Positions 1-64,000 of a stretch of 64,000 nucleotides of DNA are shown here, one piece after another. The notes beneath the pieces were generated by a model. That model did no database searches and had not been told where the DNA came from. It saw only the letters and a program-made list of their open reading frames with translations. Source of the stretch: Candidatus Omnitrophota bacterium (GTDB lineage Bacteria; Omnitrophota; Gorgyraeia; Duberdicusellales; 4484-171). A program made the position numbers and the translations under genes. The stretch lies in contig JAAEQW010000139.1 of the NCBI GenBank assembly GCA_024231025.1, positions 7,851-71,850 of the forward strand, read 5' to 3'. How positions within the stretch are numbered: position 1 is the stretch's first letter; every line of letters starts with the position of its first letter.

Positions 1-3000
1 ATAACGACTAAAAACATCTCTCAATAACCTAGTTCGATCAACCGCTTCATCATTTTTTAATTCAAATTCTACTAATTGATCCTGGTATTCAGCTATTATT
101 TGCCATGTCACAATTAATTCATCTAGTTTAGCTATTGCTATCTGCACCCGCCGCTGAGCCAAAATGCCATCCATATCCTCAACAGCACTCCACAGCCTTG
201 AAAGTAAATCTAAAATATACCCATACTCCAATTCTAATTTAAGATGTTCATTTCTAATCACACTTTCAATACTGCTCGCGGCTGCAGAGAAAAACCCATC
301 ATTAATTAAAGAATAAATTTCTCGCAGGCGCAAACCTAATTGCTCGTGACTTTTCTCAAAACGCCCCCTTAATCTAAGAAGCTCATCGTGATCCTGCGTA
401 ATTAGCTTAATTATTTCTTCCTCTTTAGTTGAGCGCCAACACTCTAATTTTTTGTTAAGTTTATTATAGGCTTGCATAATCCGCATCGAACCACCCTGTG
501 CTTGCTCTAGGCACACACCAATATTGTTGTATTTTCCATAATCTAAATCCCGACGCTGATAGAAGATAGCCTGACCATGCGTTTTGTTGTCTACTACTTC
601 CGCTCCCGCATGGCGGGAAATAATCCTCAAAACAATACGCCAAAGAATACGGCATACCGCCTTATCACTACAACTTGAGATAATTTTTCGCTCTAAAATA
701 CCTAAAGCAACTTGATTCATGTAAACAACAAGAAGGCCTCTTTTATAATTATATTCTGCAATTACAGTGGGTTCGATTTGCAATTTCATGTAAACTGGAT
801 TTCTTTTTATTTCCGGTAATGAAATCTCTGAAAAGGTCAAAGATCTAATCTCAGCATATCTACCCTGATCCCACTCAATCCCGCAGTCAATAATATTTTT
901 TTTACCGATCCCGCTTCGTCTACTACGAATCAACCTAAACGCTTCATCAACTTCTTCTTTACTCCAATTATCAAAAAAACTTCTCGAAATCTGATCCTTT
1001 TCTTTCACTCCTCCCCACCAATAATCAGAGCCATCACTATTTGCCATAAAATCAGGTAAATGGGACCACTCATCAGTGCTGGGTGCGTCATCTTTAAAAT
1101 ATTGCACATGGCAATAACCATCCTCATCTTTCGTAATATAAATATTCTCAAAATCCCAGCCTTTTTTCATGACACCTTCTATTGCATCTTGATTATGAAA
1201 ATAGAGCTTACCATTTCTAAATCGCATTCTTGCGCCTCTAAAAGCAGGTAAAACCTGTTTCGATCTTAGTTGATACTTATCCCGCATTGCTAAAACCACA
1301 CAATTTTCCTTACGGTGCCAATTTAAAAGATTCTCTTTAGCCTTAAGCGTTTTTTCATCTAATCTTTCAGGGACAGCGTTAACAATATCCTCAAAACTAT
1401 ATTTTTTTAGCGCTGGAGCAAAACCTTGTAATCCCTCAATATGATCTTTACATTCTTTTTTTCGCATTGACACGCCCAAACTACTAATAATTCGCGGATG
1501 CAACCAAGAGGACACCAGCAAAACATAATCACTGGCGGAAAGATTAGTTTTCGAATTCTCACCTAATTTTTCCGCTAACACTGCACTTGATAAATTCGCA
1601 TCACAAAGTTGAGCATCAATCTCTCGACCAAATATCATCCAGCGATTAATTAGCGAGTAAACTTCGTCGCGAGAAATCCCCTTTATTACCTCTTGAGAAA
1701 AAATTTCCGCAGGAGCCCTGCCCATGCCAGTTAACAACGCCGCCAAAAATACTACCGCAATCTTAAATTCAGTCTCATTTTTAGAATCAAGTAAAGATTC
1801 CTCTAAAAATAAACCGCGGTTGTCCAGAACAGCAGAAAAATTGCTCATACGACTAACTCGATAAAACGGTTTTCTATTAATTTCATCTAAACTCGCTGCA
1901 ATTCTATTCCTTTCATTGTCGCTACTTTTTAGAACCAACTCTTTAGTTTCCTTAACACACGCTCGATAACGTCTCGCTTCCCACTCAGGAATTTCCCTAC
2001 TTTCAGTGATTTCTTCCTTAACAAATTTCATCAGCGGCATTATCTCTTTAGAAAAAGATTTCTCCTCTTCAAGATGACGACGACAAACCACCAACGACCT
2101 CTGCGTTGTTCTTCGATAATCACCAAGAAACCCAATCCCTGCCAGAACTGTTCCGACTCGATCCTGAGGGCTTGCCTTAAATTTAAGAATCGGAAAAATT
2201 TCCCGACCAAGATGCTTTTGCGCATATTCTGCAAGTTCATTAAATAAAATTAAAACCGCATGATAAATGTTTTCTCCGGTTTTGAAGATGTAAATGTTTT
2301 CCGCGTCCCCGTCAGATAAAATTTTCTGAATGCGGCGTAAAAATATTGTATCCTTATCAATATCAATCTCTCTTAAACGATTAACTACCTTATTAACAAG
2401 CTCCGGATAATACAGCGCAAACAATTCCAAGAGGCAATTGTTATCATATAATTGCTTGCGACCTTGACTGCTAATAGCAAAAAGTTCACAGCTTTCCTGC
2501 GCGTAATCTTCTTCTATTGCGATGTAGTCGTTTATTTTTGCCAAGGCCTGAAGTATCGGCACCGCGCTACAAAACTCAATAGGGCTAGCATCAACCGCGC
2601 TTTTAGAAACAGTCCACCATAAATTATCCTTTTCTAATTTATAAATATAAATCTGACTAGCACAATCAACAAATGAAGGATATCTTGAAAAAATATCCTG
2701 AGCGCCTCGCAAGCGAATTCTTCCTTCGGTAATATCACAAGTATTAAGTAAGTTTAAAAATAATTGTTTTAACTCACTGGAAAGCTCTTTTATTAAAGGG
2801 TTAACTAACAAAATCTCAACGCTCGCATTTCGGATCGGTTGAGCATAATGATATGGCTGAGAGTACACGCGAAGTGCCTCTATCTGTGATAAGCTTTCCG
2901 CGTTCAATAAAGATTCACTTTCAAAAAGGGGCCTATTTGCGTATTTAGCGTAATCGAATTGTAAAAACCTTAATCCAAATCTACGCGCGGCATCGGAAAC

Positions 3001-6000
3001 TTCATTTCTTAAAAAACTAAAATTAATCTCCTCAAAAGGCACTCCAAAGGTCCGCATTATTTCGGCTTCACCCCACACCCCAACTCTAGAATCGATAAAG
3101 CGCCAAGTTAAGGGTAGCAGCTGGCGATTGCGCAAACTATTTAACAATTCTTCATCATCTGGATAATGACCATCTTCGTTAGAAAAAGCTAATCTTTTAC
3201 ACGCCTCAATCAAAAAATTAGAGGATCGCACTTGCCTCCACTGAGAAAAATCTTCTCCTAAATTATCTGGCTTAGATTTAAAAATCCTCCCCTTTAAAGT
3301 GTAGATCTGGCCATTAATTAGAATATACGCGTCACTAAAAAGAATATACGCATCATCTGAGTATTCAATGCCGTTTACGGCGTCGCACCATTGGTATTTC
3401 CCGCATAAAAAAACAAATTCTGCCTTCTCGTCATTTCGCCGGCTACCGCCTTTAACAAAAGAAACAATTTCCAAAACAGCATTAGAAAAATCCTCTTCAA
3501 TTTCTCCACCAAGGGATTGTTCAACCTTATAGCTATCGCCAAAACCACCATCCCAATCGGGAACTATGATATGTCTACTAATCAAAGCTAAAAACTCATC
3601 AATAAATCGCTCGACACCACCAAAACTAGTTGACATGCACTCTAGCGTTGATTCATTGGGGGCGTTAACAATGCCGGTAATTTCATTTTCGATCCATTCT
3701 CGACTCCAAACTGGAATTTGCTCTTCTTTCATTTTCTCAACCAGTTTAGAATAAACCCTATTAAATAAGTGTTTAAATTTCTTCAAACGCTGATTCACTT
3801 CGACTGAGCGAGGTTGCCAACCAACTTTCGCTAAATCACTAGTTTTCGCTCCTACCCGCCTTTTATCAAGATATTGTGGTGCCTCGAGTATTTTAAAAAT
3901 CTTATGTTTTTTTGGTAATTTCCCTAGCGCCAACCACTGCGCATATTTTTCCTTAGTAATCGCATGCAGTGTTTTTGATTTTTTATCTACAATAACAAGT
4001 ATACTCTCGGCAGCTTCCTCTAGCACTTCATCCGCACGCAAAATCTCTTTAGCCCGACCTAAAAGTATCCCCTCCTCTGATAAATCTTTGTATTGAGCAC
4101 CTGCCTCAATAAAACGATTCGCCGTAATGCTAATATTTTCATCACGCACCATCGCAACTGCCCCAACTAAACAATTCTTATCTAAATCAATTAAAAAAAG
4201 AGAACGGAGAGCAACAGTAAACCCATCAGCAAAAGGTGCATCTTCTGCTACTCGTATGTTTTCTTCTCTAAGCTTAATAAAGAATCCCACAATTGCCGCA
4301 ATAGCAACAACCCCAGCCCCCCAGAAAAATGATTCAATCGCCACACTCTGCTCAACGTTAACCAAATTAAGAAATAATCTCAGCAAGAAGCTATCTTCTC
4401 GAAAATAATGGGTTAAAGATTCAAGCACTTCACCAGGCAATCCCGCCCATAAAGGACAAAAGGAATTTAACTTAGAAGAGCACCCTTTGCCTCCTAAGTC
4501 TGGTACGCTCGCTAATTTGACATTTAAACCGCTTATATCGGATTTAAGCTGCTCTAGCCCCCCAACAAACTCAGCTATCCCCTTGTTGATAAGCGCTTCA
4601 AGCGTCCATTGCGTTAAAAAATAATTAACCTTATCTTCTGCCGCAGTATATTGACTTGCTTGAATCAAAACTTTCCAGGTTAATTCTATTAAATCTTTAA
4701 GTTGTGTTTTGTTGATGTCTTTATCTGCAGTATTAATAAATTCAACTAAAGTATCGATCAGAAGTTTTATATCTTTACCTTGAAACAATTTTTCATCTAA
4801 GTAGTGCCTCGCGCTGCTTCGGCTTTTATCCAATTCGCCGGCAAGAGAAAACTTAAATCTATTTCCTTTTACCATGATATTAGATAAGTTATACTTGCCC
4901 AATCCAAGTTCTATCACTCCAAGATAAGCACTATCTACCCCTACTTCCCTCCCTTGGGCAAGGAATCGCTTTCTTTCACACGGCATACTGCAATAGAAAT
5001 CAGCATCAAGTTTCCAAAGCTCATGCTCTGACCTCACCCCTTCTTCCGTAAAATGCATCAACTCATGACGCCTTAAGCCACCGGTTAATTGCGGTTTAGA
5101 AACCGCTAACTCACAACAAACCCAAGGATGATAAGAGAACAATTTTATTGGTACTAATTCATTATGTGCGCCATAAATGTGATTTTGCTTTGCCGCGGCA
5201 GCATGAATTTGCTTAAGATCCTCCGCTTCACGTAACTTTTCAGGATTCAATGTAGTTAAAAGAGCGAACCGATCAAACGGATAGTTGTGGCCTTCAAGCT
5301 CCATCCTCACCTTATTGGCAAATTGCCCTACCGCAATACTTAATAGCGGCGAATAATCGTCTACTAGCCATTCAATCGGGTCTAATTGCCAAACCCCATT
5401 TTTACCCTTATTAAATACCACCATTGCTAAATCACACTCTTCTCCCTGGCCAAGCTCATCTACTTTTCGTTGGTGAATTTTATCGGGAACTAAGAGAGGA
5501 AAACATTCACCATCGTCTTGGGTGTCACCTGTTTCATCTTTGTAACGCAGAACACAAGTTCTTGCTGATTCTCTTACATCAGTATCGAGATCATTAATTA
5601 ATTCCCTCGTCTGCGATAAAAAACGATCTGCAATATCGTGCCCTGTAAAACCAAAAGAATAAATCAACATCAGAGTGTGCCTGCGTACACAAGCCTCGCT
5701 ATCTTTAAGTCCATTTTCTAAAAAACCTAAATATTGATTGTTCTTCGGTTGATAATGCTCATAGCAGAAAACAGCATGAGTGAGAGTCGCCTTTCTAACC
5801 GCATCATTTCTAGAATCCCAAAGACGAGTTAATAAAGGCAGTGGAAATTGCAAATGAAACCCTACCCCTAAAGCATCATCCATTACCTGGGGATTAAGCG
5901 TTTTTTGCACTGCCGCAGTCAATATTGCCCAAGCTTTACCCAGTCCGATCTCTGCTAAATCCCGCGCCATACGAGATAAGACTTCCTCTTTATTGTTATA

Positions 6001-9000
6001 GCGGCTAGATTCATCGAGGGATAAGGAACTTATTAGGCTATCAATCACGCCTTCTTCAAATTTATTTTGCCTTAACAGATTAAAAGCAATATCTAATTGT
6101 TTTTGAAATTCTTTTTCTTTATCTTCGGGGTGATGAACCTCCGAGATGAATTCCTCTCCAGTAATAGGGAGCCGATATTCAACATTCACACTTTGCGGGA
6201 TGCCATAATCATTCTTCTTAGTGTGACGCTTCTCAATAAGTATTAACTGCTCTAAATCAACTTCCCAACTGATAATTAGTGTTTCGTTCTCATTTTTTTC
6301 TATAGCCATGGCATAACACACCCCGCCGGTTAAAGCTCTAGCAATACGCCGCATCTCACTAGGATAATGTTTAAGATGGCAAGTTGTATTACTAATTATT
6401 CGATATATTTCATCCTCAGATAAAGGAGCGCCTGGATTTATTGCGCTGTCTGGTCTGAGAATTATTACCGATGCTAAGCTGCTTTCGGATAATAATCGCT
6501 CTGCCTCGCCATGAGGATCATCAATATCAGCTAAGTAATATTCAAAATGTTCATGGGTAAGGGTTTCTTGAGTAAAGTTTAAATTTTCTGGGGTGATAGT
6601 TTCTAAACCATTGAGGGAATTCATTGTTGTAATATAAAGGATAGGACCGGCATCAGAATCATCAATTATTGAGCCAAAGTCATCAACAATATTCATTATC
6701 TGTACTGCCTTAACTGCAACAATTTGTAATGGCGGACCCCGAACGCTATAACTTACGCTACTAAGCGTTCTTCTTATTTGTGCATCTTCTATTACTAAAC
6801 GTTCATTTGCCCAAGGGATATTTATCGCTACTACTCTATTTGCTTGGCTAGCTTCGTCTATAATCTCCTGAATTCCTTTTCGCGTATGTCTTCCGTTTGA
6901 ACCGCGCCGACCAGTTGATTCGCTCTCTAAATTAAACTGATATTGCAATCTAATTAATTCCTCAACTTTGAATAAGAAGATATTAATGCCTGCTAAATCT
7001 TTCAACCCAATGCCCGCTTCGATAAACCGCATTAATGAGGCTAAACCGCTAATAAAAAAATCTCTATGAATTTTTCGACCACCCCTAATTCTTGAAAATC
7101 CCCAGCAACCAATCAATAAAAAAAGATACGCCAAAGTAAGCAAGAGCACCCCCTGCCAAAAATCACCACTGCCGCCCTTAGCCCCCATAGAAAGAATACC
7201 AACGGCTGAAATTATGCCGGAGCACCCTTCAGCCTTATATCTCCTTAGGAAATGAACAAAACGGCCGTATCGACTACTCTTTGCAAGAGCTTTTGCCGCA
7301 GCTTGTACTTTTCTTGTTACTACTTTTCTATCCAAATCATGTTGGGTGGCAATTTGTTTATGAGTTTTCCCATTAAACACCCCAAAAGCAGCCTCAACAA
7401 CAAGATCAGGATTAACAAGATTACGCTCTAAATACTCTTTCATGGCTTGGCGATTTTTCAACAAGAAATGCATATCTACTTTAGAAGGTTTGAAGTAAAT
7501 TCCCATAAGAGGCCCCAAGATATCAATCAAAGGCTGCCACTCAGGATGCTTATCAGAATCCCTTTTAAGACGCTTAAAAATATCTTTTAATACTTGCTCT
7601 ACCCTCTGCCTAGATAATGGTCTTGCCCATTTTTCGACAACCTCTTCGCCAATTTCTTCAAGCGTCATGGTAGTTAATATTCTTAATTTAAGTATCTTCA
7701 TATTGCGCGAGAAAAACTGTACGCGGAGAAATAATATTGGTTCACTCAATTTTAAATGTTCTTTTACACCTGACTCAAGCTCAAGCCATAAAAGCTTTCG
7801 CGCTTGACCATTACCCACCGCCTCTTCTGGTGAAAGCCCCCCTTGCGAAGAATCATCTATCAAAGACCCCCCTAGAGACCTGGGTCTCTCTTTTATCTCA
7901 TCATGCATTGGCCAAAAAGTACTATTCCATAAATGATTTTCTAATCCTTTCGCTAAAGTTTCTTCTTCGACTTTTGAAGATCTAAAATGCACCGCCCCTT
8001 GATCCAAACCTTCATACCCTATCTGCAACAACTCTTCGCGGGCAATTACTTTCGTGTCTAATTTACTGGCTGCTACAAAAAGAATATATAGGTAAAGGCC
8101 CATTACCGCCATCTTGGCGAATTCATCACCCAATTTAATTCTTCTCTCCAGGAAAAGAATCTGTTTATCGCTTAAGTCGGGCAGCTCTTTTGCTCTTTGA
8201 GAGGGATTAAACTGTTCCAACTGCCTTATATATTCATCTACACCTGGGATATTTTTTCGTGTTAGCTGAGGATTATATTTACTGGAATCCGCCTCCCACC
8301 GCGAGTAACGTACGTAGGGTTTATGCTCAGCTTCATTCTCAATGTCTAGGTAATCTTTGAGGCTTAATAACTGATCCCAACAGCTGCGGCCGGGGAAAGT
8401 AGGCAGTATCCCCTGCAAGGATCTTTTAAAACCCCCCAATAAAAGAAACCGACGGGAAAGATCCCACACCCTTAAATTCTCTAGAGTCTTTTTCTCTCTC
8501 TTTTTCCGAATAGCTACAGATCTCAGTCGATTCTCATTGATAACTCTTACTCGATCTTCTAAAGCCTGCCGTAAAGCCTGGCGAGAAATAATCGCCCAGT
8601 CAATCTTATGAGTTTTCTTAGTGCTGCTCATTTCTACACACTTCAAGACATATTTAAGATCTTTCTTTATCTTACCCTCATAACCATCAGTAAATCTAAT
8701 CCTTAAGCGAATCGCCCCTCTAGACAATTTGCTCAGTCTTGCACAATCCTTCTTGTAGTAACATGCGCTTTCATTCTCGGCAAGCTCGTGTGCTTGCCCT
8801 CTAGATAAATGCAAATTCTTCAACTCAACGGTTTCATGACGATTAATATCGCCGGTCAACTCTGCTCCAACATTATCCTGTGTAAGGGTCAGGTGAATTG
8901 TAAAGATAGCTTCCGCTGCAGTAATTCGATAGCGAAAAACTTTTACTCCTTTTTCTCCGGTAAATTCGATCCGCACTCTTTTACCCGCAACTGCCAAATG

Positions 9001-12000: not shown

Positions 12001-15000
12001 TGTGTTTGGTTTTTTTACTGGTTTTTTTTTTGATTTTTTAGCTTGAGCTCTAAATTCTTTTAACACTGCCTTAGCCATGTGTCTATCCTGCATACTCACA
12101 GGCAAACGAGCGGCAACGCTCTGCTGCCCAACCCACTCGGGTAATTTAGCACCACTAGATGGTTCTAGAAGATTATTTAAAGGAACCCACCCTACACGCC
12201 CTTGGCGAGAATAGCGCGCATGACAACAAGTTATGTCATCCTGGTCAAAAAGCAAATAGATATTATCAGTTGATAGCCCTCGCTCTTGGTTTTTCTCAAC
12301 AAGCGCTTCTAAGCTTAAGAAGATCTCGTCATTTCTACGACAAAAAGCAACACTCCCTATAATATCGACCGCCGCCACCGCTGCAACTTCTTGACCATTA
12401 GCCTCCGCCACAGCATCCATAAAAGAATTACCAATTAATCGCTCCTTTTTTTTATCTACCTGTTTTCGCATCACTGGAAGCGCATTTTTTGACTTTTCTG
12501 CCGTAGGCATTGGCAAAGCATTAACTAACTTTCTTTTACCAGCTAAAGCTGCCGCCATATGAATAAGAACTGCTTCCTTTTGTTGTTGCAAAGCGTTATT
12601 AAAGGCAAGCGATATATACAAAGTACCGTTTGAATCTTGATCATATAAAAATATCGCAGCAAAAAGCGATCTTTTCTTCGTTAAATACATCATTACCGGT
12701 AAAGAAGAAAGCTCCTCTAAAGCCTTGCGGATACCGCGGTCGTCAACGCTTGATATTAAACTATCGAAGGTACTATCTAGACGCCGCTGTTCACCTGGGT
12801 GCAATTTACGCTTCATCCTCAATTCACTTTCTATCTCTTGTTTTAGATTATGACTACTACTCGCCACATTAGTAAACTGATCAACAGGGCAAAAAACATA
12901 CGGCCGATCATTTCTTTTTTTAGGAATCAAACCACTGGCAGTAGTGGTTTGTCTTTCTTTGTGTTGGGATAAAAACTGATTAGTAATCTTTTCGGCATCT
13001 TCTTTGGCTATGCAACACGTTAAAAATATTAAAGTAGCCGCTAATCTAATGTTACTTGCTTCTTGATGTAAATGAATTTCTCCACTTCTGATTATCCCGT
13101 AAAAATAAATACTCTTGGTATAGTAGAATTCCATGGCACTGATACTTTTCAATAAATTTATGAGACAATCGCTTCCCTGTTTTTCTAAATATTCGTACGC
13201 TATTTTCATTGCCGCAGGAATATTGGAATTTTCTAATTCGTTACGACTCAAAACTTTTGCCCCACTGAGAGCAGCTTCAATTTTTTCTTGCGAAAAAAGC
13301 TGTTTCGCATCCCGAGGGCAATAAGCCACAACTATCAGCTGCTTTGGCCTTGCCCCAATCTCGCTACCGTCGACGATTGTTCCGTCTTCTATTGCTTTGG
13401 GCATATGGATCCAACTATCTCCCGGGGGAAGGCTTTCGAAGAATTCCGCATGAAAACGATTATCCCCTGCTCGCTCAACCCAAATATTTTCATGGTTTAA
13501 TTTTGCAAGATTTTTGTCAAACACCATCCATGTGCCATCGCCATCTTCATTAATTTCAGCAACAACAAAATCAGAAACAACTTCACTCATCTTTCGATTG
13601 GAATCTTTAGTCTTATCAAGATGAGCATTAAAAAGACAACAGCGCTTTAATTGGTCATAACTATGGCAAACAGCGATTTGATTTCTTCCTTTATCTTTAG
13701 CTTGGTAAAGCGCACGATCAGCATTTTCGCTAAGCGACAGGGCATTATCACCTAAAACAAGTTTGTTTTTAGAATCATACTGATAGATCTCATAAGCAGC
13801 CAAACCAACGCTCATCGTAATATTAACTGACTCACCCGCTCTTACAGGGATACCTTGCTTATCTAACGCATCTTTTATCCTACCTAGCACTGATCGAGCA
13901 ACTTCTTCAGTAGTGTCAGTTACCAGCAAAAAGAATTCATCACCACCCCAACGAGCAAAACGATCATTGGCACGAATATTTTTGCGTACTATATCTGAAA
14001 AAACAGTTAGAACTACGTCGCCGGCATTGTGCCCATAAGTGTCATTTATCCGTTTAAAATTGTCCAAATCGATTATAAATAAGAAAAGTCCCGGAGCCTC
14101 TTTCCTGCGTTGCGCCATCAACACCTCACTCGGAAAAAATTCCTTCTCAAAAGGTATCCGATTAAGTGCACCGGTTAAATGATCAGTAATTGACTGCTCT
14201 TTTAGCTGCTCATACAAGAAAAAGCTCCTCATTCTACCTGCCAAATGTTCTCTTTGCTGCAATATATCGTAATTAACCGCAGAAAGCGCCCAGATTACAC
14301 TGCGCACTTCTGTTTCGTTTCTACCAACAAGACAACGACGGCGAGGGCGCCTAGAACTTTTTGGATCATCCAGCCAATTATTAATTAAAAATGTTTCAAA
14401 CTTACCAAGGCGTTCACTGGGCAAAATCGAAAAAATCATTTCACCAACATCACCTTCGTAATCATGCTTATCTTCATTATAATTTACTGCAATTATATCG
14501 GGATTCTTGGGTAATTTCCTCCGATCATAAATATGTAAGCCAACCAGTGGTCTACCTTGGGCGTCATCATTAAACCACCAATTCCAACCAAGTTGCCCCT
14601 TTTTATCATATTCGCGCTCTTGCTTGCGAAGCCTCTTTGCAATACTTTTGCGCTGCTGGTGATCACAATTTAACCACTCTCTCACCACTGAAGAAAACCA
14701 CCCCTTTTCACTATGAGGATCGGCAATAATTGACTGATCATCGTTATCCTCGCTATCGCAATTACCTCCATCGTCAACCATAGCAAAGGCAGAATCACGC
14801 AAACCTTCAGTTTTCGCTTTATTAGCGAATCCACCACTAGCGAGATCTACAGTATAATTATAAGCTGAAGCTCGCTGGCCAATAAAGGCGTTAGTCACCG
14901 TGTGAGTTTCAACCTTCATTTTGTATTTCTCCACATTACGGCGCAGTTGTTTTTCGTCAACTTTACCTTTTCGATAAAGCTCCACTTGCCGATCAAAAAA

Positions 15001-51000: not shown

Positions 51001-54000
51001 CTTAACATTACGTTTGCGCTTTTTGCCTATTCCCGGTGTTAACTTGTTAAGCGTATATCTGTGGAAATCACTACCGCCAGAAACCATCAGCCCATGTCTC
51101 TGCGCGAAACCTGACCAGTATTCATTGCTTTCTGCATTATGCTCAGAATGAAATGCTTCAATACCATCTAATCCGGCAGGAATCAATTTATCAATAATTG
51201 TCTTCCCCCACATCATCTTACTTAAACGCAATATCTCACGTTCCTCCAAACCCTGTCTGTGCCTTCTCTGAGAAATAAATCCTTTTTCCACCGCCCATTT
51301 CCAAACAAAATGCTTATCCGCCGGATGAGCAAAGAAAGCAAGACCTCCATATTTCTTAATCATTCTTATAACATCTACCGCAGGCCTAAATCCTTGCTTT
51401 GACTCTATCTCCTCTCTAATCCTAACCAACTCTTCTTGGAACTTCTGGTTTTGCCAATCAATACCATAACCTAAGATATGCGTTTCCCCACCATTGAGTT
51501 CTGCATGAAGCTCAACACCAGGGATAATTTCAACACCACATTCTTCGCCAACAACAATTGCCTCTTCAATAGAATCAACACTATTATGGTCAGTAATTGC
51601 GATTGCTTCTAACCCTAAATATAAAGCTGCCCTCACAAGATCTGTTGCGCTAAATCTACCATCGCTTGCAGGAGTATGGAGATGAAGATCAACACATCCT
51701 TTTCTTGCATTTCTATCTTTAGGTATCCTTATTTTCATCTTTCGTAATACATCAAAGGAACCTAATTTTCGATATAAAGCTGCTGCTTCTTGCTTCTGCG
51801 CATACGCTCCTGGAGCAAATTCAACAACAAACAAACGCACAAGATCAAACTTAGGATCATCTAAGGTTTCTCGTTTAATATACATTCTATTTATAAACTG
51901 ATCGTAACAAACAGCAAAAACAACTGTTTCATTCTCAATAATTATTGCTTCTGCCGGTCTGACATCTTGAGAAATTAAATCTACACCCCTTAGAAACGTT
52001 AAGGCTAAATCTTGAGCCAAATCAATCAATCTGCCTTCTCCAGCAGTAGGCTCCCGTAATTTTATTCCATCCTTGAAAAATAGCGCACGCGAAAACTCGT
52101 CTGTATCTTTACACCCAACCTTCTCAATGTGGCCTAAAGAAACTGCGGAGTTAGAGAAGTCTGTTGCTGCCTTTTGCATAAAAGGAATCGGACCAAAGAC
52201 AAGTTGAAACTGCCTGCTATTGTTGGTAGTGCTACATCCCGCATGCAAACTTTCATAAGTAACAACCCCGTTAGTTTGACAGGTCAAATCAACAAAAGCA
52301 TAGGCATCTTTGCGCTCAAAATACTGCCCCTCACCTTGAGATGAAATAACTGAAGAGTGGTAATCCTCCATTGGTTTATTCATTGGAATAACATGCCACT
52401 CAGATGGCAGCTCAATGCCATCGCTATTTAAACTCACCAAAGATAATGCTTTCATTACTTTAACTTTTAATTCTTCAAATTTCTGATATCCAAAAACAAC
52501 TTCCTCTATCGCTCTATCGGCTGTGCTTTGATTATAAACATCGTACTCTTCTCTAGTAAAAGCAAACCGCCCCAACAACTCGTGCGCCCCAACACTTCTG
52601 CCATTAAAAACGTCAGCTGTTTCTTTCTCTCGTGGAAATACAAAAATTTTATCTTGATAGCCACAAACATTAAAAGGAATATTATCATCCTGCAAAACAT
52701 CTACTATTCTATAAAGAATAGCCGCTTTAAGGTTGGGGTTATCTCCACTTATAACAAAGCCGTTAAGACCAGAAAGGCAAAATAAATCAACCTGACTAAA
52801 ATCATTTTTTGTTTCTCGACCGCTATTAGCACCTAGCTTTAACCCAAAAATAATTGCATTATTTCTATTAACTTTATCGACAAGACTTGACAATAATGGC
52901 CTTCTAAGTTTAATTGACTCTACCTTTTTCTTTGGTTTACGACTTCTAGAGCCAATACCAAAAATATGAGATCCGACATGCCTTGTATTTTTGAACCTCA
53001 TTCTATGACGCGTTGCAATAGCAAAACCGATTTTCTTCTTCCACAACCTCTCCCATCCAGTTTGCACTTTAGCATCAAAATCATAACTAGCCCAATTATT
53101 CGCCCCATGTTTCAAAGACCCGATCAACCGGAAAAATCTTTCTGCTCTATCAATCTCATTTTTTTCAACCGCACTAATAGCAGACTGATACAGTACAGGA
53201 AAACTTGTCGCTTCTATTAAACTAGCTTCAAATGCTGCCTTCTCTGTATGGATTTGGCTAAGTTGCTCATCCGTTAAATTATGATTAGTGCCCGGTTCAA
53301 ATTTTAAATAATCGTTTCTAGGACATCGACCTTGCCAGCTACCAAATTGTTGACTATACGTTTCCACCAACTCGCCCATACGACCTCGCATCTTCTGATA
53401 AAGCATGCCTGGATTCTGCGATTGCTCAAAGGAAACTCTCGCTTGTTGACGAAAATCAGCAATCGCCTGTAGCGTCGCGGTTGTAGCCGGCAACATCTTC
53501 TCAGATGTTAATCGCGCCGCGCCTTTTTCAAACTCCTCAATTGATTTATGCCATTCTTTTCTCCAAAAACGAATAATTTGTATCTCCTCATAGGCACGGA
53601 AGGTATTTCTTAATTCAATTAACCGCTGTGGAACTTCTATCTTCCCTTTTATTACTAACTTAGCTAATTTCACAATACATTTCACATACTTAAGTGAGTA
53701 ACGGGGATAAATTATATTCGGGCGAAGATATTCGCTTATAAACCTATCAGTAACCAAACCCTCAGGAATCTCTCTATTAACCATTGTCGTATCATACTCA
53801 AAATGTCCCCTTTGCTTTATGTCGATTAAAAATCGGGTAATTTCGCCGACTAATTGCTCAGAAAGATAAGCGCTGACTCCTCCCTTCACCTGATCAAACA
53901 GATTCCCTAAAAGCTCAATATATTCCCTGTATTCATCATCTTCACTATCAACGGTAATTTGTTTTTCTAAGCGCTTCTCCTCGCTATCGAAAGTTAACTC

Positions 54001-57000
54001 CCTTAAATCATAGCCTTCCCTTTCCGTAACTTCCTGATAGGCAATAATCGGTTCTAAATCCTGCCAATCTTCCGGTGGCCGCACGCGATTGCCTCCTTCA
54101 ATAAAAACATCAGCAGGAAAACGGCTATAGTCATAAAAAACTGCAAAGGCAACCGGTCCCGGCGAATTAAATGCCTGAGCAACTAGTTTGGCCGAAGCAT
54201 AAAGCCCACCGGTCCTTACCCAATCGTCGATAAACATAATTCCGCTTTCTCTAATGTATTGATAAGTCTTAGTATAACTTAGTAATTTTTGTATCAAAGG
54301 CATTGTCGAATATTCAATGACATTGCGGGAACAGTAAGTCTGACCTTGTCTGGTCACAATTTTCGCAATTGGACGAAGCAAGTTAAAAGAATCTTTAAGC
54401 CGTTCTACATTCGAAAAGCTAATCTCTTTATTAATTTCACCCACTCCCCGAATAGTTTCCTCTATATCTTGCTCAGCTAAATTTAATCCCGGATAACTAG
54501 TGGCTAAACTATGTACTCGCTCTAACCAAGCGCTCATCGCCTCTTTGGCTGCTTCTATTTTCTTTGTTCTTTTTTTCCTACTGCCCTTAGCGTGGACAGC
54601 ATCGTTTTTAAATCGATCAACGGTTTCAATACTGCTTCCACTGGAATCTCTACCTACAGTAGCAATCAAACATGTAAGCTCAATTAACCATTCCGGCATT
54701 GTACCCCGCGCGTCTAAAATATTAATTGCCTCTTCTAAGTTAAGACCAACTAGTTCTTGTGCGTTTATTGCTAATTTTTGCACACTTACTGCAGACATAA
54801 TATCTCCTACCATCTCTGCGGTAACCTCCTGCTTTCTTTCCTCCTCAGAAAGAATCCCATTTAAAGCCACAGCCAAAGGCAAAAATCTAGCTAATCGAAC
54901 GTGAGCAATATCTTTCCTTTTGGGCAATTTTACTCCAAGCTGATCCTCAAACATCTTTCCGGCTGCACTATTACGCAATGTCTCAATAATCTCAATTAAA
55001 GCTGTATTTCTTGAACAAATAACTAACTTTTGTTTGTTGTATGTCCTCAATAAAGAAATAAGATAAAGTGGCAATTCCTGATGCGCAATATAACTATTTT
55101 CAAAACCCCCATTTACTTCCTGCTCAAAAGGGCTTTCAGGTTTCTTGCGATGACGAAATAGTAAATAATCTAAATAGCGAATCAACCTTTCCCTGTTGGG
55201 GAAGTTGATCAAAGCCATATCACGAAAGGCAGAAAATTCTTCTTTGCCTACCGTAAAAGCATCTTGCACTCTTATAAAGGCCGCATTAAGAACATTTTCA
55301 CTAGCATCAAAAACCCTAGTTAAAGCCGGATCAGGATTAACATAGCACCCCTTGACCTTGGCCCCAATTTCATACTGTGCCTGGGCAACTTTATTCTCTT
55401 CAAGAGTGCCACCATTTAGTTCACGCACGAATACAGCGGCAAGGCCATGCTCTGGCTTATCAAAGAATGGCCGTTCTACATACAAAATATTACTAGCCTG
55501 ATCGTAACAAACAGCAGAAGCAACTTGCCTAGTCTCAATAATCACAATTTCCGGTAATTCATCAATCAACATCTTCCCTGGCAAAACTTGACGGCTTCTC
55601 TGCATGAACCTTAAAGCAAAGCCCCATTCCCGAGAAATTACTTTATTTTCGCTTTCACTAGCCGGACGAAATTCCACGATAAATCCGCGCAATAAATTTT
55701 GAAAGGCAGAATAACCGTAAAAATCAAATGTGTAATTAATATTAGTTACAAATTCACCCCACTCTCTAGATGTTGCCAAACCGAACTCATCACCTAACAT
55801 GTTTCTTAAACGAGCGTAAACTCCACTGCCTAAATATGCTAAAGCATCATTCCCCGGCCCAAAGACAGCTTCCCATGGCATAAATTGATCGCTCTCCATC
55901 TTACCTTTAGGCTCACCAGAAATAAGCCGCACACCTTCGTAATCTTCAACAGGAACTTCCACTAATTGACCATCTCGATTAAACCTTAAAACTTTACCCG
56001 CAGGATTAATAAAGGTAGTTTTACGGAATAAGGCTATCGTCTTGGCTGGACCAACACCTTCAACAGAATAGCCACCACGAATTGAAATTATTGGGCCATC
56101 ACTTCCTTGGGGATCATCGCCAGCAGTGAAAACATCTTCGTCATTGATACTGCGATGGTGATAACCGCTCAATCTTTGTTTAAAATCATTTAAGCCATCA
56201 CCCTTATCATTGCAAGCAACTTCAAGATATACTGTATCTTCTTGGTTATTACGGATTAAATTAACTCTCAATCTATCAAACCCTTCTTGATTCAATCGCG
56301 CATTCACTTCTGTTACTAATCGCAAAAGAGGCGCTTTATCTGCTTTTCTGCTCTTTTCGGCAACTTTTGCCAAAGCTCTATTGCCAGGACCAAGAATAAA
56401 CATACTAGGGAGGTTGCCTTCTCGAGCAAGATTTTTCAAAAATCGTGTTTCTTCCTCTGAAAATTTATCCTTAGGATAAATCCGCTCACCGGTAGCCAGA
56501 TAACCACTATTAGAACAATCCGTGTAAAAAAACATGCCCGGTGCTTGGCCATCATTAATCCTTTCTGCATCAGCCTTGCGTAATCTCTCAACCATTGCTA
56601 ATTCCTGCACCATCTTACATTCGTTAAAACTACGACCAGTATTAAAAGACACGCTTATGCCCTGATTAATTAACTGTTTTAAAAAGTTCTCTATTATCAG
56701 TGATGAATCGCAAGTTCCATCAATATCAAGCATCACCCCTCGTTTAGGATATTGTAGATCTTGATACAATTGTGTAATATTATTTGCCTCGCTAAAGAAT
56801 CTAGCAAACATTGGTCTCAATAGCGTAATGCCATAAACTTTGGTCATACGCAAGAAATTGGCTCTTAATTTATTCCAATCATACCTACTACCCAAACTAC
56901 CTTCAAAAATCGCCTTTTTCTCCATAAGCTCATCAACTCTATTTGGACTTAAACTATGATCACTACCAACTTCAAACTTTAAATAAAGTTTAGAAGGAGC

Positions 57001-60000
57001 CTCAGCCGGTAAAATATCAGCAGATTCAGTGTAACGGTCCACTAATCCTTTTATCTGGGCCATCATTCCAGAATAACTCTCCTTTAATCGACTCGGCTCA
57101 ATCGAGAATGTTTTTGCTTGCTGGCGAAAATGCGCAATCGCCTGCAACGTTGCGGTTGTAGCCGGCAGCATCTCCTCAGATGTTAATCGCGCCGCGCCTT
57201 TCTCGAACTCTTCGATTGATTTATGCCACTCGCTTCTCCAAAAACGAATAATTTGTATTTCCTCATAGGCACGGAAGGTATTTCTTAATTCGACTAGCCT
57301 TTCGGAAATTTCAATCTCCCCTTCCAGCAATAAATTAGCTAATTTCGCAATAAGCCTTACATAATCAGAAAGATGCTGGCGAGTAACTATGTTCGGACGA
57401 AGATAATCATTTATAAGAAGGCTGGTAATTGTTCCTTCTTTTGCTTCGCCATTGCCTATCATTTCAGCATAATTAAAACTCCCCTCGTTTTTAATATCAG
57501 TTAAAAAGCGTACGATTTCACCAATCAATTCCTGTGAAGCCGGTATATTAATAAGATTAGCAATCTGCTTTGATACAATCTGTATTAATTCCAAGTATTC
57601 ACCATATGCCTGATCACTGCTATCAATACTAGACATGGCTCTCAAACGCTTCTCCTCACTATCGAAAGTAACTGCCGCTAAACTATGCTCGGAAACCGGC
57701 TGATAAGCCAGCACCGGTTCTAAATCCTGCCAATCTTCAGGAATTTGAGCCCAAGAACAACCTTCAACAAAAGCATCAGCTGGAAAACGGCTGCCGTCAT
57801 AAAAAAGCGCAAAAACTAACGGTAAAGATGCACCAAAGGCTTGAGCAACAACTTTTGCCGGAACAAAAACGCTTCCGGTTCTTACCCAATCTTCCACAAA
57901 CATAATTCCGTTATCTCGTATATACTGTCCAGTTTGCGTATAAGCTAACAACTTCTGCAACAAAAACAATGTTGAATATTCAATTGGATTCCGAGCAAAA
58001 TAACTATTACCTTCTTTATTTATAAGCGAACTAAAACGTTTAATTTTCTTAAAAATTTTGCTAAACTCTAGGCTACCTTCATTAAGCTGATCGGAAAGTT
58101 GTTGAATTTGACAAACTGACAAATTCAATTCTGGATAATTAGCTGCTAAATTGCCTGCTCTTTTTAACCATTTTGATAAGGCATTCAATGTATCTTGCTG
58201 ATCCACATCGCTCCGTGTCATTCTATCAATTGCCTCAATACTTCCTTGATCCACACTTCTGTGTGACGGTTCAGTTAATTCTGTAACTTCAATAAAGCGT
58301 TGATCAATCTGACCACAATCAACTAACCGACCAACAACCTCAGCAAAACTAAGACCGATTAAATCTTCTGCGCATAGCCCTAATTCTGCTAATTTTTGCA
58401 TGCTTACTGCAGATACAATATCCCTTGCCACCTGCGCGGTAACTTTACTTTCTCTCTCCTCTTGTGTAAGAATTCCATTGATAGCCCAAGAAATCGGCAT
58501 AAATCTACCAACCTTAATATGGGCAATATCTTTTTCTTTAGGCAAAGTTACATTTAATTTCGTTTCGACTAATTGCCCAAGTCTACTGTCACGCAAAACA
58601 TTCAACGATTGTATTATTTTGCTATTTCTAGCAATAACAGCCACCTTATGATTTCTGTATGCTCTTAACAACGGCACTAGATAAACCGGAAATTCTTGAG
58701 GAGTGATACACAATGTTTTCAAGCTATCCTTTACGATTCGAGCAAAATTCCGATAAGGAAAATTTATCTTATCCTGGATCAAATAATCCAAATAACGCAC
58801 AAGTCTCTCTTGATTCGGAAAAGTAGATGTTACTGACTGACGAAATTCCGCCAATTCTTCTTCGTTCAATCCGAAAACTACTTTTGATCGACTAAAGCAA
58901 CTTTCGATTCGTGCCAAACTAACTTCAAACACTCTACCAACCGCGGCTTCACAATCTTTAACCTTCACTAGCTGATCTTCTTCGTTAAACCTTAATGCAC
59001 TCCCTTTTCGATCGATAAAGGTAGTCATCCTCAACAATGCAGCAGTTTTTACTGGGCCACTTCCTTCAACAGAATAGGAGCCGCGAGCTGAAAGTAACGG
59101 TCTATCATTTTCGTCCGGTGCATCAGCAGCGATAAAAATATCCTCGTCCTGGATACCGCATTGATGATCATCACCTAATATTTTTTTGAAATTCCCTAAA
59201 CCTTGAGATTTGTCATAGCAAGCTATTTCAATATAGGTTATTCCTTTAACTGACGAACCAAGTGAATTTACTTTAAGATGTCGAAATCCTGCCTCTTTTA
59301 ACTCGCGCATAAAAAACTCTTTCAAGGCTGATAAATATAACTTTTCACTCTTTTGCGAATATTTTGACAAATACCTGTATTTTAATAAATACTTATACCT
59401 AGTCGCATATGACACTCCCAAATCGAATCGCTCACTGAGTTCTTCAATAAAATGACTTTCCTCTTCAGTCAATAAAGGTCTAGGATAAAGGCGATCCCCC
59501 TTCCACCATTGGTTAGCGCCAATTACACAAGCATCATTAGCGCCTCGACCATAAAAAAACAAGCTCGCTGGTATCCCCGTAGAAATAGCTTGACTCTCTT
59601 TCTCCATAAGTTCCTTGATTATTGCTAGCTCTTCCTTTGTGCGGCAATCATCAATGCTGCGTGCCGTATTAAAAGCCACGGGAATAGCCCTTTTTTGCAA
59701 CTCAAACAAAATAGTCTTTAGTTTGCCACTGGGCACTGATGTTCCATCAAGATCAAGCATCACGCCCCGTTTAGGATGCTTCAACTTTTCAGATAGTTCA
59801 TCTTCAACCAGTTCATCCTTTTTGTTAAATCTGACAGCTTTGCCTTCAGGAGTAACAAATATACTCCGCCGCAATAACATCGCGGTTTTTATCGAACCAA
59901 TCCCTTTAACGGAATAGGAGCCACGAGCTGAAAGTAACGCTCGATCATTCCTTCGCGAATCATTCCCTGCAATAAAAATGTCCCTTTCATAAATCCCCAA

Positions 60001-63000
60001 TCTATTCTTTATATCATCTAACACTTTACTCGCATCATAACAAGCAATCTCAAGATAATCTGAGCCATTGTATACATCACGAAAAACATTTACTTTTAAA
60101 TCACTAAATCCTACTTTTTCTAATTCGCCACTAATAGTTTTTCTTAATTCAAATAAATCAGCTTCATCAATCGCCTCGCGTGGCCGCAACATATACTTAT
60201 ATTTCGTATGATGCCTCTTCTTAAAATTAAACCTCTCTACAAGATCTTGAATAAAATCATCTTGTATTTTTGAAAATTTTGGTTTGGAATAAAGCTTCCC
60301 ACGACAAGCATCCGAAGCCTTATTCCCTCCACGACAATAAAATAATACGGCAGGATTCTCCCCCTGAGAAACTCTCTCTTTTTCCCTATCTCTTAAATGG
60401 CTCATCATTGAACATCTTGGATCATTCTTAAACTCAGAAAGCCCACGCACCGTAGAAAAAGCCAAAGGAACGCCTCTCTCATGCAAAGCTAATACGAGGT
60501 CTCTCACCGTTGAAGATGATGTGCTTACTCCGTCAACACCAAGCAGAACCGCCTGTTTAGGCTGATTTAATTTTTCATCTATCTCTTCTATCTGCTCCCA
60601 TTCTCTACCAATTTGACAAAACAATCCCTCTTGCAAGCAATTTGAGCCGTAAATATCAAATGTAAGAGCAAGCTTGCCTGCAAACTCACTCAAATCCTTA
60701 AACGTACTCAAGCCAAACTCATCAATTAGCAAGCTCTTTAGACGCGTGTATGTTGCAACATCTAATAATTTTAAAACATCATCTTCTGCACCAAAGATAA
60801 TTTCCCATGGAATAACTTGGCTGTTTTCTGCATTACCATTACTTTTTTGAGAAATACGTTGAATAGCTTCATCCTTTGTGGTAGCAACCTCTATTAATTG
60901 ATCATCTCGATTAAATCTTAAAACTTTACCCGCAGGATCAATAAAAGTAGTTTTACGTAATAAAATTGCCGTCTTGGCTGGACCAACGTCTTCAACAGAA
61001 TAGCCACCACGAATTGAAATTATTGGACCATCACTTCCTTGGGGATCATCGCCAGCAGTAAAAACATCTTCGTCATTAATGCTGCGGCCGTGATGAGCGC
61101 TCAATCTTTGCTTAAAATCAACTAAACCTCTACCTTTGTCAAAACAAAGTATATCGAGAAGCTTGCTTGTTGAATCAACCATAGCATCCAGGGTCACTTT
61201 TAACCTACCGCACCCTGCCTGGATCAATCTGCCCTTAACTCGATCCATTAACTCATTTAGGCGCTCTCTGTCTTCTTCTTTACCCGATGCTGGAACTCCA
61301 GCCATCCATCTGCAATCAGTAATAAAGATCTGCGCAAGGCCAAGCTCCCTGGCAAATCCTTTTAAAAACAACGCTTCATCATCGGTGAATACATCTGAAT
61401 CATAAAGACGTCTGTGTGCAGCATCATGTGCCCGATTAGAACAACTAGTGTAGAAATATACCCTTGGTGTTTCTCCTTCAGCAAGCCTAATTTTTTCCTC
61501 ATTGAGTAATCTTTTAGTCATCGCAATATTAAACCCGCCTTGCCCCCTACAATCATCAAAACTGCGACCAGTATTGAAAGATACCGGTATATTATGGGTA
61601 ATTATTTGCCGTAAGAGAGATTCTATTTCCGGTGACGGTATCGACGTTGCATCGAGATCAAGCATCACGCCCCGTTTAGGATATTGTAAATTTTTATGCA
61701 ATTGAGTAATATTGTTTATTTCAGTAAGAAACTGAGTAAATATCTTCCGTAAAAGCGTAATGCCATAAACCTTAGCCATTCGTAAGAAGTTCCTTCGAAA
61801 CTTGCCCCAATCATGCCCATAGATTATTTCCATGATTTGGTTCTCGTGATGCGTTGCGCAATTTAACTCATGCACGAATACTGCGGGAAGATTATATTCA
61901 GGATTATTGAAGATTTGTTGTTCGATGTATAGGGCATTATCGGATTGGTCATAATAGGCAGCAAAAGTAATTTGTTTACTTGTAATGATTGTTACATTAG
62001 GCGGGCCGCGCGTTGGGTTAACTCTACCTTCTCTTTCCAAGAAGCTTATTGCTTCTTCTCGTGCTGGATTAATTAACTTATTTTCTTCTGCAGTTGGTGT
62101 GCGAAATTCTACACCTTCGATGCGGTATCTACCCAACTGCTCTTGGGTTTGAGCCAAGGCATAGCCATTGTAGCCTGCATCAACTTGGGTAGAGCGTGTT
62201 GGCAATGTATCTGAAGCTCTTACTATCTTGGCCTCAAATGTTGCTTTCTCAAAGGCAAGCTGGGCGAGTTGATGGTCAGTTAATTTGGAACTGGTGCCAA
62301 CAGCAAATTTTAAATGACGTTTTTCTGGACAATATCCCGGTAAAATATGAAACGTATCGCGAAATCCGCTGACTAAATCATCTATCTTAGCAATCATTTG
62401 CTGATATGGTTCAGTTAAATCAGCTGACTCTCCAGGTAAAACGCTTGCTTGCTGGCGAAAATGCGCAATCGCCTGCAATGTTGCGGTTGTAATCGGCAAC
62501 ATCTCCTCAGATGTCAATCGCGCCGCGCCTTTTTTGAACTCTCCGATTGATTTATGCCACTCGCTTCTCCAAAAACGAATAATTTGTATTTCTTCGTAAA
62601 CACGAAACAAATCTCTTAGCTCAATCAATCTCTTAGGAATACTAACCTCATTTTCAAGAGTTAGATTAATAATCTTAAAAACAAGTTCCATGTATCTATT
62701 AAAATATTTAGGGGCGGTTAAATTAGGGCGAAGATACTCATCAATGAAACGATTGGTGACAAATCCTCTTGGTGTCCCATGACTACCAATTATCATTCCA
62801 TGATATTTAAAACTTTCTTTCTTTTTTCGATCAATTGCGAAACGAAGGACCTCTCCAACAAATTGTGGTGAAACATATGTCATATTAATAAATCTTCTCA
62901 ACTCCTCAACTTTAGTCTCCATGAGATCTAAATATTCCAAGTAATCAGAATGGGTATTATCTGCTGTCATTTTTCCTTCTAGGCGCTTTTCTTCTGTGTC

Positions 63001-63984: not shown

Positions 63985-63990
63985 TTTTCG

Positions 63991-63996
63991 CTCCTT
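63991..63996 (-). promoter_or_regulatory. Shine-Dalgarno-like AAGGAG, 6 nt upstream of the candidate ATG start at 63984.
   Basis: Reverse complement of ctcctt at 63991-63996. The spacing to the ATG is canonical. However, the upstream in-frame codons still align with the repeat unit found at the starts of modules 2 and 3, so the ORF may continue 5' beyond the window. Confidence 0.45.
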
Positions 63997-64000
63997 AGGG

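Follow-up and report, generated by a model that had tools for sequence, protein, structure and literature searches.

A stop-free 64-kb reading frame from Candidatus Omnitrophota: a piece of a giant gene with an array of duplicated, nucleotide-related enzyme modules

Giant genes of bacteria have come to be recognised as a class only in recent years, and little is understood of how they arise and what they do. In one survey genes longer than 30,000 bp were termed 'large' and those longer than 90,000 bp 'giant'; the open reading frames (ORFs) described there reach 85,804 aa and contain numerous transmembrane (TM) regions and divergent embedded enzyme domains, and they are commonest in the Omnitrophota and present in other phyla too (West-Roberts 2023, 10.1101/2023.11.21.568195). 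A second survey lists 3,650 proteins of at least 10 kAA (thousand amino acids) and 348 of at least 30 kAA, the largest having 147,155 aa. The proteins of at least 10 kAA have a mean of ~22 TM helices, a TM-only topology accounts for 46%, and one class was named 'multi-enzyme metabolic cluster'. HAD- and kinase-rich modules are reported, repeats are traced to ancient duplication, and the proteins are overwhelmingly sequence-unique (Nielsen & Lui 2026, 10.64898/2026.06.07.730766). Here we analyse a stretch of 64,000 nt from a Candidatus Omnitrophota bacterium (GCA_024231025.1, contig JAAEQW010000139.1, positions 7,851 to 71,850), referred to as the window. Its minus strand is a single reading frame of 63,999 nt without a stop codon, which exceeds the 30,000-bp threshold for a 'large gene'. 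A preliminary description of the window had held that such a fusion of membrane segments, coiled coil and nucleotide-related enzyme domains was not described so far. This does not hold: multi-enzyme proteins that are anchored in the membrane and 10,000 to 147,155 aa long have been described from the Omnitrophota and other phyla, and the window ORF belongs to this already documented kind of TM-rich multi-enzyme giant proteins.

The frame is read on the minus strand from 63999 to 1 (register 1, 4, 7 and so on of the plus strand). The preliminary description had claimed that it is free of stops, and the check for in-frame stops came out clean: there are none among the 21,333 codons. The remaining five frames are interrupted by 779, 1272, 1375, 1582 and 2498 stops, with maximal open stretches of 69 to 255 codons. 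At the per-codon stop probability of 0.072 given by the base composition, 21,333 codons would remain stop-free by chance with a probability of about 1e-694. The translation has a protein-like amino-acid composition and the frame shows a strong codon-position periodicity (GC1 0.50, GC2 0.36, GC3 0.33), and all 22 blocks of 1,000 codons have the same GC content (0.375 to 0.418), GC3, periodicity and codon usage. For nine pairs of paralogous modules within the frame the ratio of nonsynonymous to synonymous substitutions (dN/dS, Nei-Gojobori) is 0.21 to 0.39, and therefore the copies have been kept as proteins since their duplication. The internal copies are 30 to 76% identical on the protein level, and the highest identity between DNA repeats in the window is 88 to 89% over 300 nt. 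Inverted repeats were not found in the window, and its only two tandem arrays are short and in frame. No tRNA or Rfam RNA genes and no marker gene were found within the 64 kb, and an exact 60-mer of the window (positions 134-193) had no counterpart in the genome, metagenome and viral contig collections. Because of the missing stops, the uniform composition and periodicity, the limited identity of the repeats and the low dN/dS values, the 64-kb frame is a real coding sequence under purifying selection, as had been proposed. A reassignment of stop codons was considered and rejected, since all three stop codons are missing from the frame.

The coding strand is purine-rich, with 15,239 G against 10,086 C and 20,233 A against 18,442 T; each of the blocks has a GC skew of about +0.20. 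One antisense frame has only 779 stops, compared with 1,272 to 2,498 in the other four noncoding frames, and open runs of up to 255 codons. We take this as a mirror effect of the codon bias and not as a second gene.

The N-terminal part of the protein, residues 2 to 9003, consists of an array of modules, which were mapped with hidden Markov models (HMMs) built from the internal repeats (Table 1). Modules tile 95% of the first 9,003 residues, and five diverged repeat families can be distinguished: A, B and C with five copies each, D with four and E with two. The order is A1' (a partial copy), C1, B1, B2, B3, A2, B4, C2, A3, E1, C3, PHP, D1, C4, A4, F, B5, A5, D2, D3, CMP kinase, C5, D4, E2 and HAD-IA, the last ending at residue 9003. 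Neighbouring modules abut or overlap by a few residues and are not separated by spacers.

The segment F, B5, A5 of this array has a counterpart in separate genes. On the unrelated 70.7-kb metagenome scaffold KELL22-1_SAMN22237329_METAG-scaffold_527 (L004) the genes 7651-8874, 8868-9953 and 9950-12034 match the residues 5680-6026, 6086-6420 and 6500-7116 in the same order, with E-values of 4.7e-61, 4.1e-39 and 3.1e-73 for the F, B and A homologues, respectively. The three genes have 407, 361 and 694 codons, overlap by a few bases and are in different frames, and the module A protein of this scaffold (P0003, ~680 aa) is a stand-alone protein. Thus three homologous proteins occur in the order found in the window, but on L004 they are encoded by separate genes in an ordinary neighbourhood, whereas in the window they are fused in frame and the modules A and B are each present five-fold. 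Because F-B-A is collinear with three separate overlapping genes, part of the giant gene appears to originate from the fusion of an operon. At least for the F-B-A cassette we take the comparison to show that the giant gene was probably enlarged by fusing an operon in frame, after which parts of it were duplicated within the gene and diverged.

The neighbourhood of the cassette on L004 comprises, at its 3' side (12041-17586), genes for a 381-aa P-loop protein (GPKNGGKT), a methyltransferase, a HAD hydrolase and an NTP_transf_5 protein and, at its 5' side, genes for a UbiE-type methyltransferase, a PhyH dioxygenase and an IS30-type transposase. The P-loop protein is at the position matching D2 in the window (after A5), and no sequence similarity to D2 was detected.

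The same order F-B-A was also found on L005, a 10-kb contig of low coverage. L005 and L006 (ENA ERZ2470813 and ERZ1300416) are near-identical 10-kb contigs from different samples with a coverage of about 1x; their ORFs are all short and on one strand, and the part homologous to F-B-A shifts frame three times. These contigs may represent a larger gene broken by errors, or separate genes. A contig-filling ORF on L002 fuses module B, a methyltransferase and module A. The protein P0001 has the order A-C-A, and its source contig has repeated ends. Contig L001 (GCA_024206195.1, JAAGZO010000845.1, 1-2484) is a single ORF of 2,484 bp whose first and last 46 residues are identical; this points either to a tandem A-C-A array in a related organism or to a circular artefact which the repeat induced during assembly. 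P0005, encoded by L003, is a 1,520-aa contig-filling fragment with a distant A domain.

Module A is a rare domain. A word-indexed search of 5.8 billion proteins returned one relative, and when 1.84 billion cluster representatives were searched exhaustively with HMMER six were found; with the module A profile no relatives were found in the GTDB species representatives, the JGI metagenomes and IMG/VR. One of the six relatives, P0005, is annotated as Candidatus Omnitrophota and is 22 to 24% identical. The window copies have the central motif GIMF[IV][ED]DWV[RK]TG[GS], which resembles the phosphoribosyl pyrophosphate (PRPP) loop of type I phosphoribosyltransferases (PRTases). As PRPP loop we regarded four hydrophobic and two acidic residues followed by xx[ST]Gx[ST] in a Rossmann-like core. 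Distant members of the family come close to this canonical form (FVDDIIASGKT, FVDDIIAGGRT), and the window copies have it in part; the loop reads LLFVDDIIASGKT in the L004 copy and IFVDDIIAGGRT in P0005. Of the 177,635 distinct PDB sequences, a profile of the 121-residue core matched only two at E up to 10, namely the phosphoribosyltransferases 6igs (E 0.027) and 7kl6 (E 0.61); both alignments span the loop, the helix and the strand. For the L004 copy the best Pfam match is Pribosyltran (E 0.017, under the gathering score). We therefore use 'PRTase-like' as a lead which may point to the nature of module A, and not as a statement of membership.

The identity of module D is clearer. PF00485 (PRK, phosphoribulokinase) matches it with an E-value of 3.9e-21 (76.2 bits versus a gathering score of 22), a profile search of the PDB gave a uridine kinase (E 7e-13), and the Walker A motif is intact in all four copies. 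The NCBIfam model udk matches with E 2e-52, and D3 is the best uridine-kinase match. These matches place module D in the uridine kinase/phosphoribulokinase family. Because the udk score of 177.5 bits falls just short of the equivalog cut-off of 180, the substrate specificity is not fixed, and uridine is a candidate substrate only. The CMP-kinase domain (residues 7872-8076) is recognised by Cytidylate_kin (E 3.5e-16) and by NCBIfam cmk (E 2e-18). The PHP domain also matches NCBIfam models of the nucleoside bisphosphate phosphatase/RNase RNM-like type (E 7e-24), well below the equivalog cut-offs.

Module B shows the motif I DxD[GA]T in four of five copies, B2 (GVDGV) being without the nucleophilic aspartate; motif IV, of the GDxxxxD type, is present in all copies. 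In the AlphaFold2 (AF2) model the B part has a predicted local distance difference test score (pLDDT) of 80 to 90. The best Foldseek matches of this model are the Plasmodium falciparum IMP nucleotidase and Cof-type HAD-IIB phosphatases (E 3.6e-7 to 1e-5), and NCBIfam HAD-IIB matches with E 2.7e-6, below the family cut-off. As marks of subfamily IIB of the HAD superfamily we regarded a DxD motif I, acidic residues in motif IV and a Rossmannoid core with a C2B cap. Judged by its motifs and its predicted fold, module B can be assigned to this subfamily.

Profile searches of the PDB with the modules A (whole), B, C and E gave no credible match. The modules C, E and F had no consistent match in Pfam at E up to 10, which holds for the L004 neighbours as well, and no match to them was reported from PDB, PADLOC or PHROGs. 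A multi-domain query of 1,900 residues (7150-9050) also returned nothing, but its length probably defeated the word-based selection of candidates, and we do not count it as evidence of absence. With A, C, E and F the window brings in four domain families that are nearly orphan. Recognised families cover about 17% of the residues over the whole frame. The earlier claim that catalytic motifs are intact along the whole length goes too far: P-loops, HAD motifs and the GGDEF motif are intact, but B2 has lost its nucleophile, the loop of A4 is degenerate, and most of the protein lies outside the recognised 17%. The preliminary description was right that the frame unites membrane segments and long stretches resembling coiled coils with many enzyme domains related to nucleotides. 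The enzyme domains recognised by profile or fold comprise four of the uridine-kinase family, one CMP kinase, one PHP, five HAD-IIB, one HAD-IA and one GGDEF domain, and the five A modules are, in addition, weakly PRTase-like. Readings of the protein as a nonribosomal peptide or polyketide synthase (NRPS/PKS), as an adhesin/RTX protein or as a repeat scaffold were rejected, since no such Pfam domains were found in the window.

The C-terminal part differs in its make-up. About 20 charge-free hydrophobic segments were found, which are clustered and all lie between residues 9059 and 19908, with none in the first 9,000 residues. Two regions are coiled-coil-like, by which we mean a proportion of E/K/Q/R/L/A above 0.55 and of P+G below 0.06; SMC/Rad50 coiled-coil matches in NCBIfam and weak coiled-coil matches in Pfam were obtained for region 1. 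The GGDEF domain is recognised with 123.9 bits by PF00990 (cut-off 23.8) and with 133.6 bits by TIGR00254 (cut-off 37.4), its GGDEF motif is intact, and it carries an RxxD I-site (RANDRFARWGGDEF). For the 1,400 residues after the last hydrophobic segments, and for the other long stretches outside the named features, no relatives could be detected in Pfam and protein searches, and the C-terminal 1,200 residues have no homologue among 5.8 billion proteins.

Table 1. Features of the window. Residue i of the frame corresponds to plus-strand positions (64000-3i)..(64002-3i).
Feature	Position in window	Residues	Strand	Evidence or remark
Single stop-free frame, 21,333 codons	1..63999		-	Open at the 3' end (position 1); 5' end without in-frame stop
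Candidate start: AAGGAG, 6 nt, ATG at 63984-63982	63982..63995		-	Sequence
Module A copy 1, partial	62215..63996	2-595	-	Starts at module position 176 of 702
Module C copy 1, ~150 aa, conserved VFVHELNGxTHxEN	61768..62247	585-744	-	Repeat HMM
Module B copies 1-3, predicted HAD-IIB fold	58960..61743	753-1040, 1126-1399, 1401-1680	-	
Module A copy 2, ~700 aa, mostly helical, PRPP-loop-like motif GIMFVEDWVRTGSV in the centre	56890..58986	1672-2370	-	
Module B copy 4, motif DIDGT	55948..56811	2397-2684	-	HAD-IIB E 2.7e-6
Other module C copies	55372-55773, 51730-52074, 49180-49641, 39313-39783	8073-8229 (last copy, C5)	-	
Module A copy 3	53206..55359	2881-3598	-	Repeat HMM
Module E copy 1	52183..53196	3602-3939	-	Repeat HMM
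PHP-family phosphoesterase, HLH motif present	51052..51693	4103-4316	-	PF02811 E 1e-10
Module D copy 1, P-loop kinase, Walker A GCNAAGKS	49612..50934	4356-4796	-	Uridine kinase/PRK family
Module A copy 4, loop degenerate (EDSVVKGRV)	47143..49245	4919-5619	-	Repeat HMM
Module F, fold without match	45922..46962	5680-6026	-	L004 gene 7651-8874, E 4.7e-61
Module B copy 5, collinear with L004 gene 8868-9953	44665..45744	6086-6445	-	E 4e-39
Module A copy 5, collinear with stand-alone gene L004 9950-12034	42550..44658	6448-7150	-	phmmer E 3e-73
D2, D3, CMP kinase, C5, D4	38653..42534	7156-7598, 7610-7936, 7872-8076, 8073-8229, 8228-8449	-	
Module E copy 2	37738-38754	8416-8754	-	43% identical to copy 1
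HAD-IA phosphatase domain, YihX-type motif FDVGNV	36991..37620	8794-9003	-	PF00702 E 2e-13
First membrane cluster, about 9-11 hydrophobic segments	34924..36825	9059-9692	-	
Coiled-coil-like region 1	22750..28752	~11750-13750	-	Between hydrophobic segments 11466-11539 and 13890-14116
Coiled-coil-like region 2	17500..20502	~14500-15500	-	Flanked by hydrophobic segments
Four candidate hydrophobic segments, just before GGDEF	15094..15570	16144-16302	-	
GGDEF diguanylate cyclase domain	13669..14205	16599-16777	-	PF00990 E 6.8e-36
Last two hydrophobic segments	4276..7161	18947-18969, 19890-19908	-	

Several smaller repeats lie in the C-terminal part. A 150-residue duplication (20986-21444 and 6493-6945; residues 14186-14338 and 19019-19169) has its copies 4,800 residues apart, each after a hydrophobic segment; they are identical to 69% on the protein and to 78% on the DNA level, with a dN/dS of 0.24. 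A second duplicate pair, residues 9722-9887 and 10975-11144, is 34% identical. The region 21652-22332 (residues 13890-14116) contains two hydrophobic segments about 200 residues apart with the common motif GFAPLGV(F/L)A(T/M)IA(T/V)AS, suggesting a duplicated membrane hairpin unit. Of the two tandem arrays, one (18064-18212; 54-nt unit, 18 aa, 2.8 copies, 88% match) sits in coiled-coil-like region 2, and the other (29221-29347; 51-nt unit, 17 aa, acidic, DDFEEGDFTLEE-like, 2.5 copies) comes directly after the hydrophobic pair 11466-11539.

The two ends of the frame require separate consideration. At its 3' end the frame leaves the window at position 1 without an in-frame stop, as had been claimed. 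At its 5' end the proposed start is present, with AAGGAG ending 6 nt before the ATG at 63984. Translation from this ATG yields 21,328 aa and 2.43 MDa. In favour of this start, none of the 313 in-frame internal ATGs has a 6-mer Shine-Dalgarno (SD) motif at 4 to 10 nt, and an out-of-frame TAA (63995-63997) overlaps the SD motif (cccTAAGGAG), as if an upstream gene ended there. Several points count against it. With 25 AAGGAG on the coding strand, the combination with an in-frame ATG is expected 0.79 times per window by chance. Only five codons of the window lie upstream of the ATG; there is no stop among them, and their translation, PKERK, aligns with the module A consensus QEER, including the invariant arginine. 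Finally, the first module A copy begins exactly at the window edge within the module, whereas the stand-alone homologue on L004 covers the module positions 7-682. If an upstream ORF stops at the out-of-frame TAA, the coding region may be split here into two adjacent ORFs. Two possibilities result: a coding sequence that extends, or once extended, beyond the ATG in the 5' direction, or a gene that begins within a truncated module A. We read the 64-kb window as part of one giant gene with at least 21,333 codons, taken from its interior or from near its 5' end.

We compared the frame with the giant proteins described so far. Like the Omnitrophota giants of West-Roberts 2023, it is a single ORF of tens of kilobases with many TM segments, is mostly unannotatable and contains strongly diverged enzyme domains at scattered places; the domains that giant proteins have in common include GGDEF. 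Their emphasis is on carbohydrates and the cell wall, whereas the content of the window is nucleotide-kinase, phosphatase and PRTase-like. With the multi-enzyme cluster class of Nielsen & Lui 2026 the window shares clusters of HAD and kinase/phosphotransferase domains in which no enzyme family dominates (PHP, PRK/udk, cmk, HAD-IA, HAD-IIB and GGDEF next to the four orphan families), as well as ancient within-protein repeats whose DNA tandems have dissolved and an almost unique sequence. It also resembles their TM-only topology, having about one TM helix per 1,000 residues and, if the start at 63984 is correct, no signal peptide. It differs in that 6 to 7 Pfam families are detectable in the window, compared with 21 to 50 in their largest proteins. 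Uridine and CMP kinases, PRTase-like domains, coiled coils of a thousand residues and collinearity with an operon are mentioned in neither of the two surveys.

The pairing of a uridine/cytidine kinase with a phosphoribosyltransferase-type domain is a known functional pairing in pyrimidine salvage. In eukaryotes UCKL1 and the plant UKL proteins are uridine kinase-uracil phosphoribosyltransferase (UPRT) fusions of about 500 aa with two domains, the second being a bona fide UPRT. The window protein likewise unites both types of domain in one polypeptide, but it resembles the PRTases only weakly, and the two types of domain form a small part of a chain of more than 21,000 aa.

From these results we consider it likely that the window is a fragment of a real giant gene of the known kind, which came about in part through the fusion of an operon and through duplications. 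Other explanations were weighed against this one. The main live alternative, which we regard as improbable, is a polyprotein: an operon would be written as one ORF, translated once and cut at the module junctions, perhaps by module C (HELNGxTH). The module boundaries do correspond to the natural ends of stand-alone proteins, as the extent of the L004 module A homologue illustrates (positions 7-682 of 702). Module C always stands between other modules, five times in all, and has invariant H, E and H-like positions, and peptidase domains have been suggested in the literature to cleave giant proteins. However, searches of Pfam, PDB, PADLOC and PHROGs with module C at E up to 10 gave no peptidase family, and HE(x5)H deviates from the canonical zincin motif. 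The conserved HE...H motif is the only feature that may speak for cleavage by module C.

That the frame comprises several adjacent genes, one ORF from which shorter proteins are made by internal promoters and starts, is very unlikely. The same modules are separate genes elsewhere, and the SD-like motifs of four to five nucleotides before 17 of the internal ATGs could be taken for such starts. Yet the lack of any stop between modules over 64 kb would require selection for read-through, a full SD motif precedes none of the internal ATGs, and the modules follow each other without spacers.

We give even less credit to the idea of a 'polyvalent' protein of a mobile element or conflict system, from a phage, plasmid or defence island. 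Passenger genes of integrative elements are one open hypothesis for giant genes (Nielsen & Lui 2026, 10.64898/2026.06.07.730766), an IS30-type transposase gene lies near the L004 cassette, and the L004 copy of module A has weak Pfam matches to PRTase-CE (E 0.098) and LPD30 (E 0.07). These two matches are not significant, however, no relatives were found in IMG/VR, and the PADLOC and PHROGs scans of the window returned nothing but generic PHP, HAD and GGDEF matches; on account of these scans the defence-system and phage readings were rejected.

Least probable of all is an assembly artefact in which repeats of a shorter multi-domain gene were collapsed or chimerically joined: the N-terminal 8,750 residues are repetitive, and the short-read contig L001 with its identical ends indicates that assemblers struggle with this family, but copies of 30 to 76% protein and at most 89% DNA identity (300 nt) are too diverged to be collapsed or misjoined, composition and codon usage are uniform, a misjoin preserves the frame in one of three cases only, and the 12,000 residues outside the repeats are free of stops as well.

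Returning to the giant gene of the known kind, we tentatively propose a function in nucleotide handling at the membrane, read from the domain content. The N-terminal array, which is free of TM segments, would be located in the cytoplasm, because its kinases need ATP. It might tether uridine/cytidine-kinase-like, CMP-kinase, HAD nucleotidase-like, PHP and PRTase-like (module A) activities at the membrane, where about 20 predicted TM helices would anchor the protein. Two putative coiled-coil stalks of about 2,000 and 1,000 residues could serve as long spacers; as a single extended helix, 2,000 residues would measure up to about 300 nm by our estimate (0.15 nm per residue). The GGDEF domain would make cyclic di-GMP on the cytoplasmic side. 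A host-dependent lifestyle has been reported for the Omnitrophota, and a role in salvage or scavenging would suit a host-dependent, biosynthetically reduced cell.

A number of observations weigh against this interpretation of the gene and of its function. The salvage role is read from the names of the domains alone, and 83% of the residues lie outside any recognised family. The TM calls were made by hydrophobicity only and not by a trained predictor. The assignment of module A to the PRTases is statistically weak: the AF2 model, built from six sequences, has a pLDDT of 56.6, with values below 50 at residues 359-439, the PRPP-loop-like part, and a Foldseek search with this poor model returned nothing below E 1.6 and is uninformative. 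The divergent SecA_DEAD/SecA preprotein-binding domain, which is present in most Omnitrophota giants, was not recognised by Pfam (E up to 0.01) among the 21,333 residues of the window, and it could lie beyond the window. Likewise, neither the glycosyl transferase/hydrolase, methyltransferase, peptidase (C39, S8) and NUDIX domains of the Archaeovorin type nor the dockerin and TSP3 repeats of the dockerin type were found in the window.

Taken by itself, the window ORF overturns nothing, since ORFs of such size and architecture have been catalogued in thousands. Its pyrimidine nucleoside and nucleotide theme departs from the emphasis on carbohydrates and the cell wall that has prevailed so far, and the module boundaries mark off units suited to separate expression and assay. 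Giant genes can thus grow when an operon is fused and its parts are then duplicated within the gene, and the collinearity on which this view is based is found in neither survey paper. It is possible, although we would call it doubtful as a whole, that the gene is an 'operon as one polypeptide': a rare, undescribed F/HAD-IIB/PRTase-like cassette would have been fused, amplified five-fold and supplemented with uridine and CMP kinases, membrane anchors, coiled coils on the scale of 300 nm and a cyclic di-GMP cyclase to give a nucleotide-scavenging machine tethered to the membrane of a host-dependent bacterium, with the gene extending beyond both edges of the window and having far more than 21,000 codons. 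If this is true, it would represent a concrete route by which giant genes arise.

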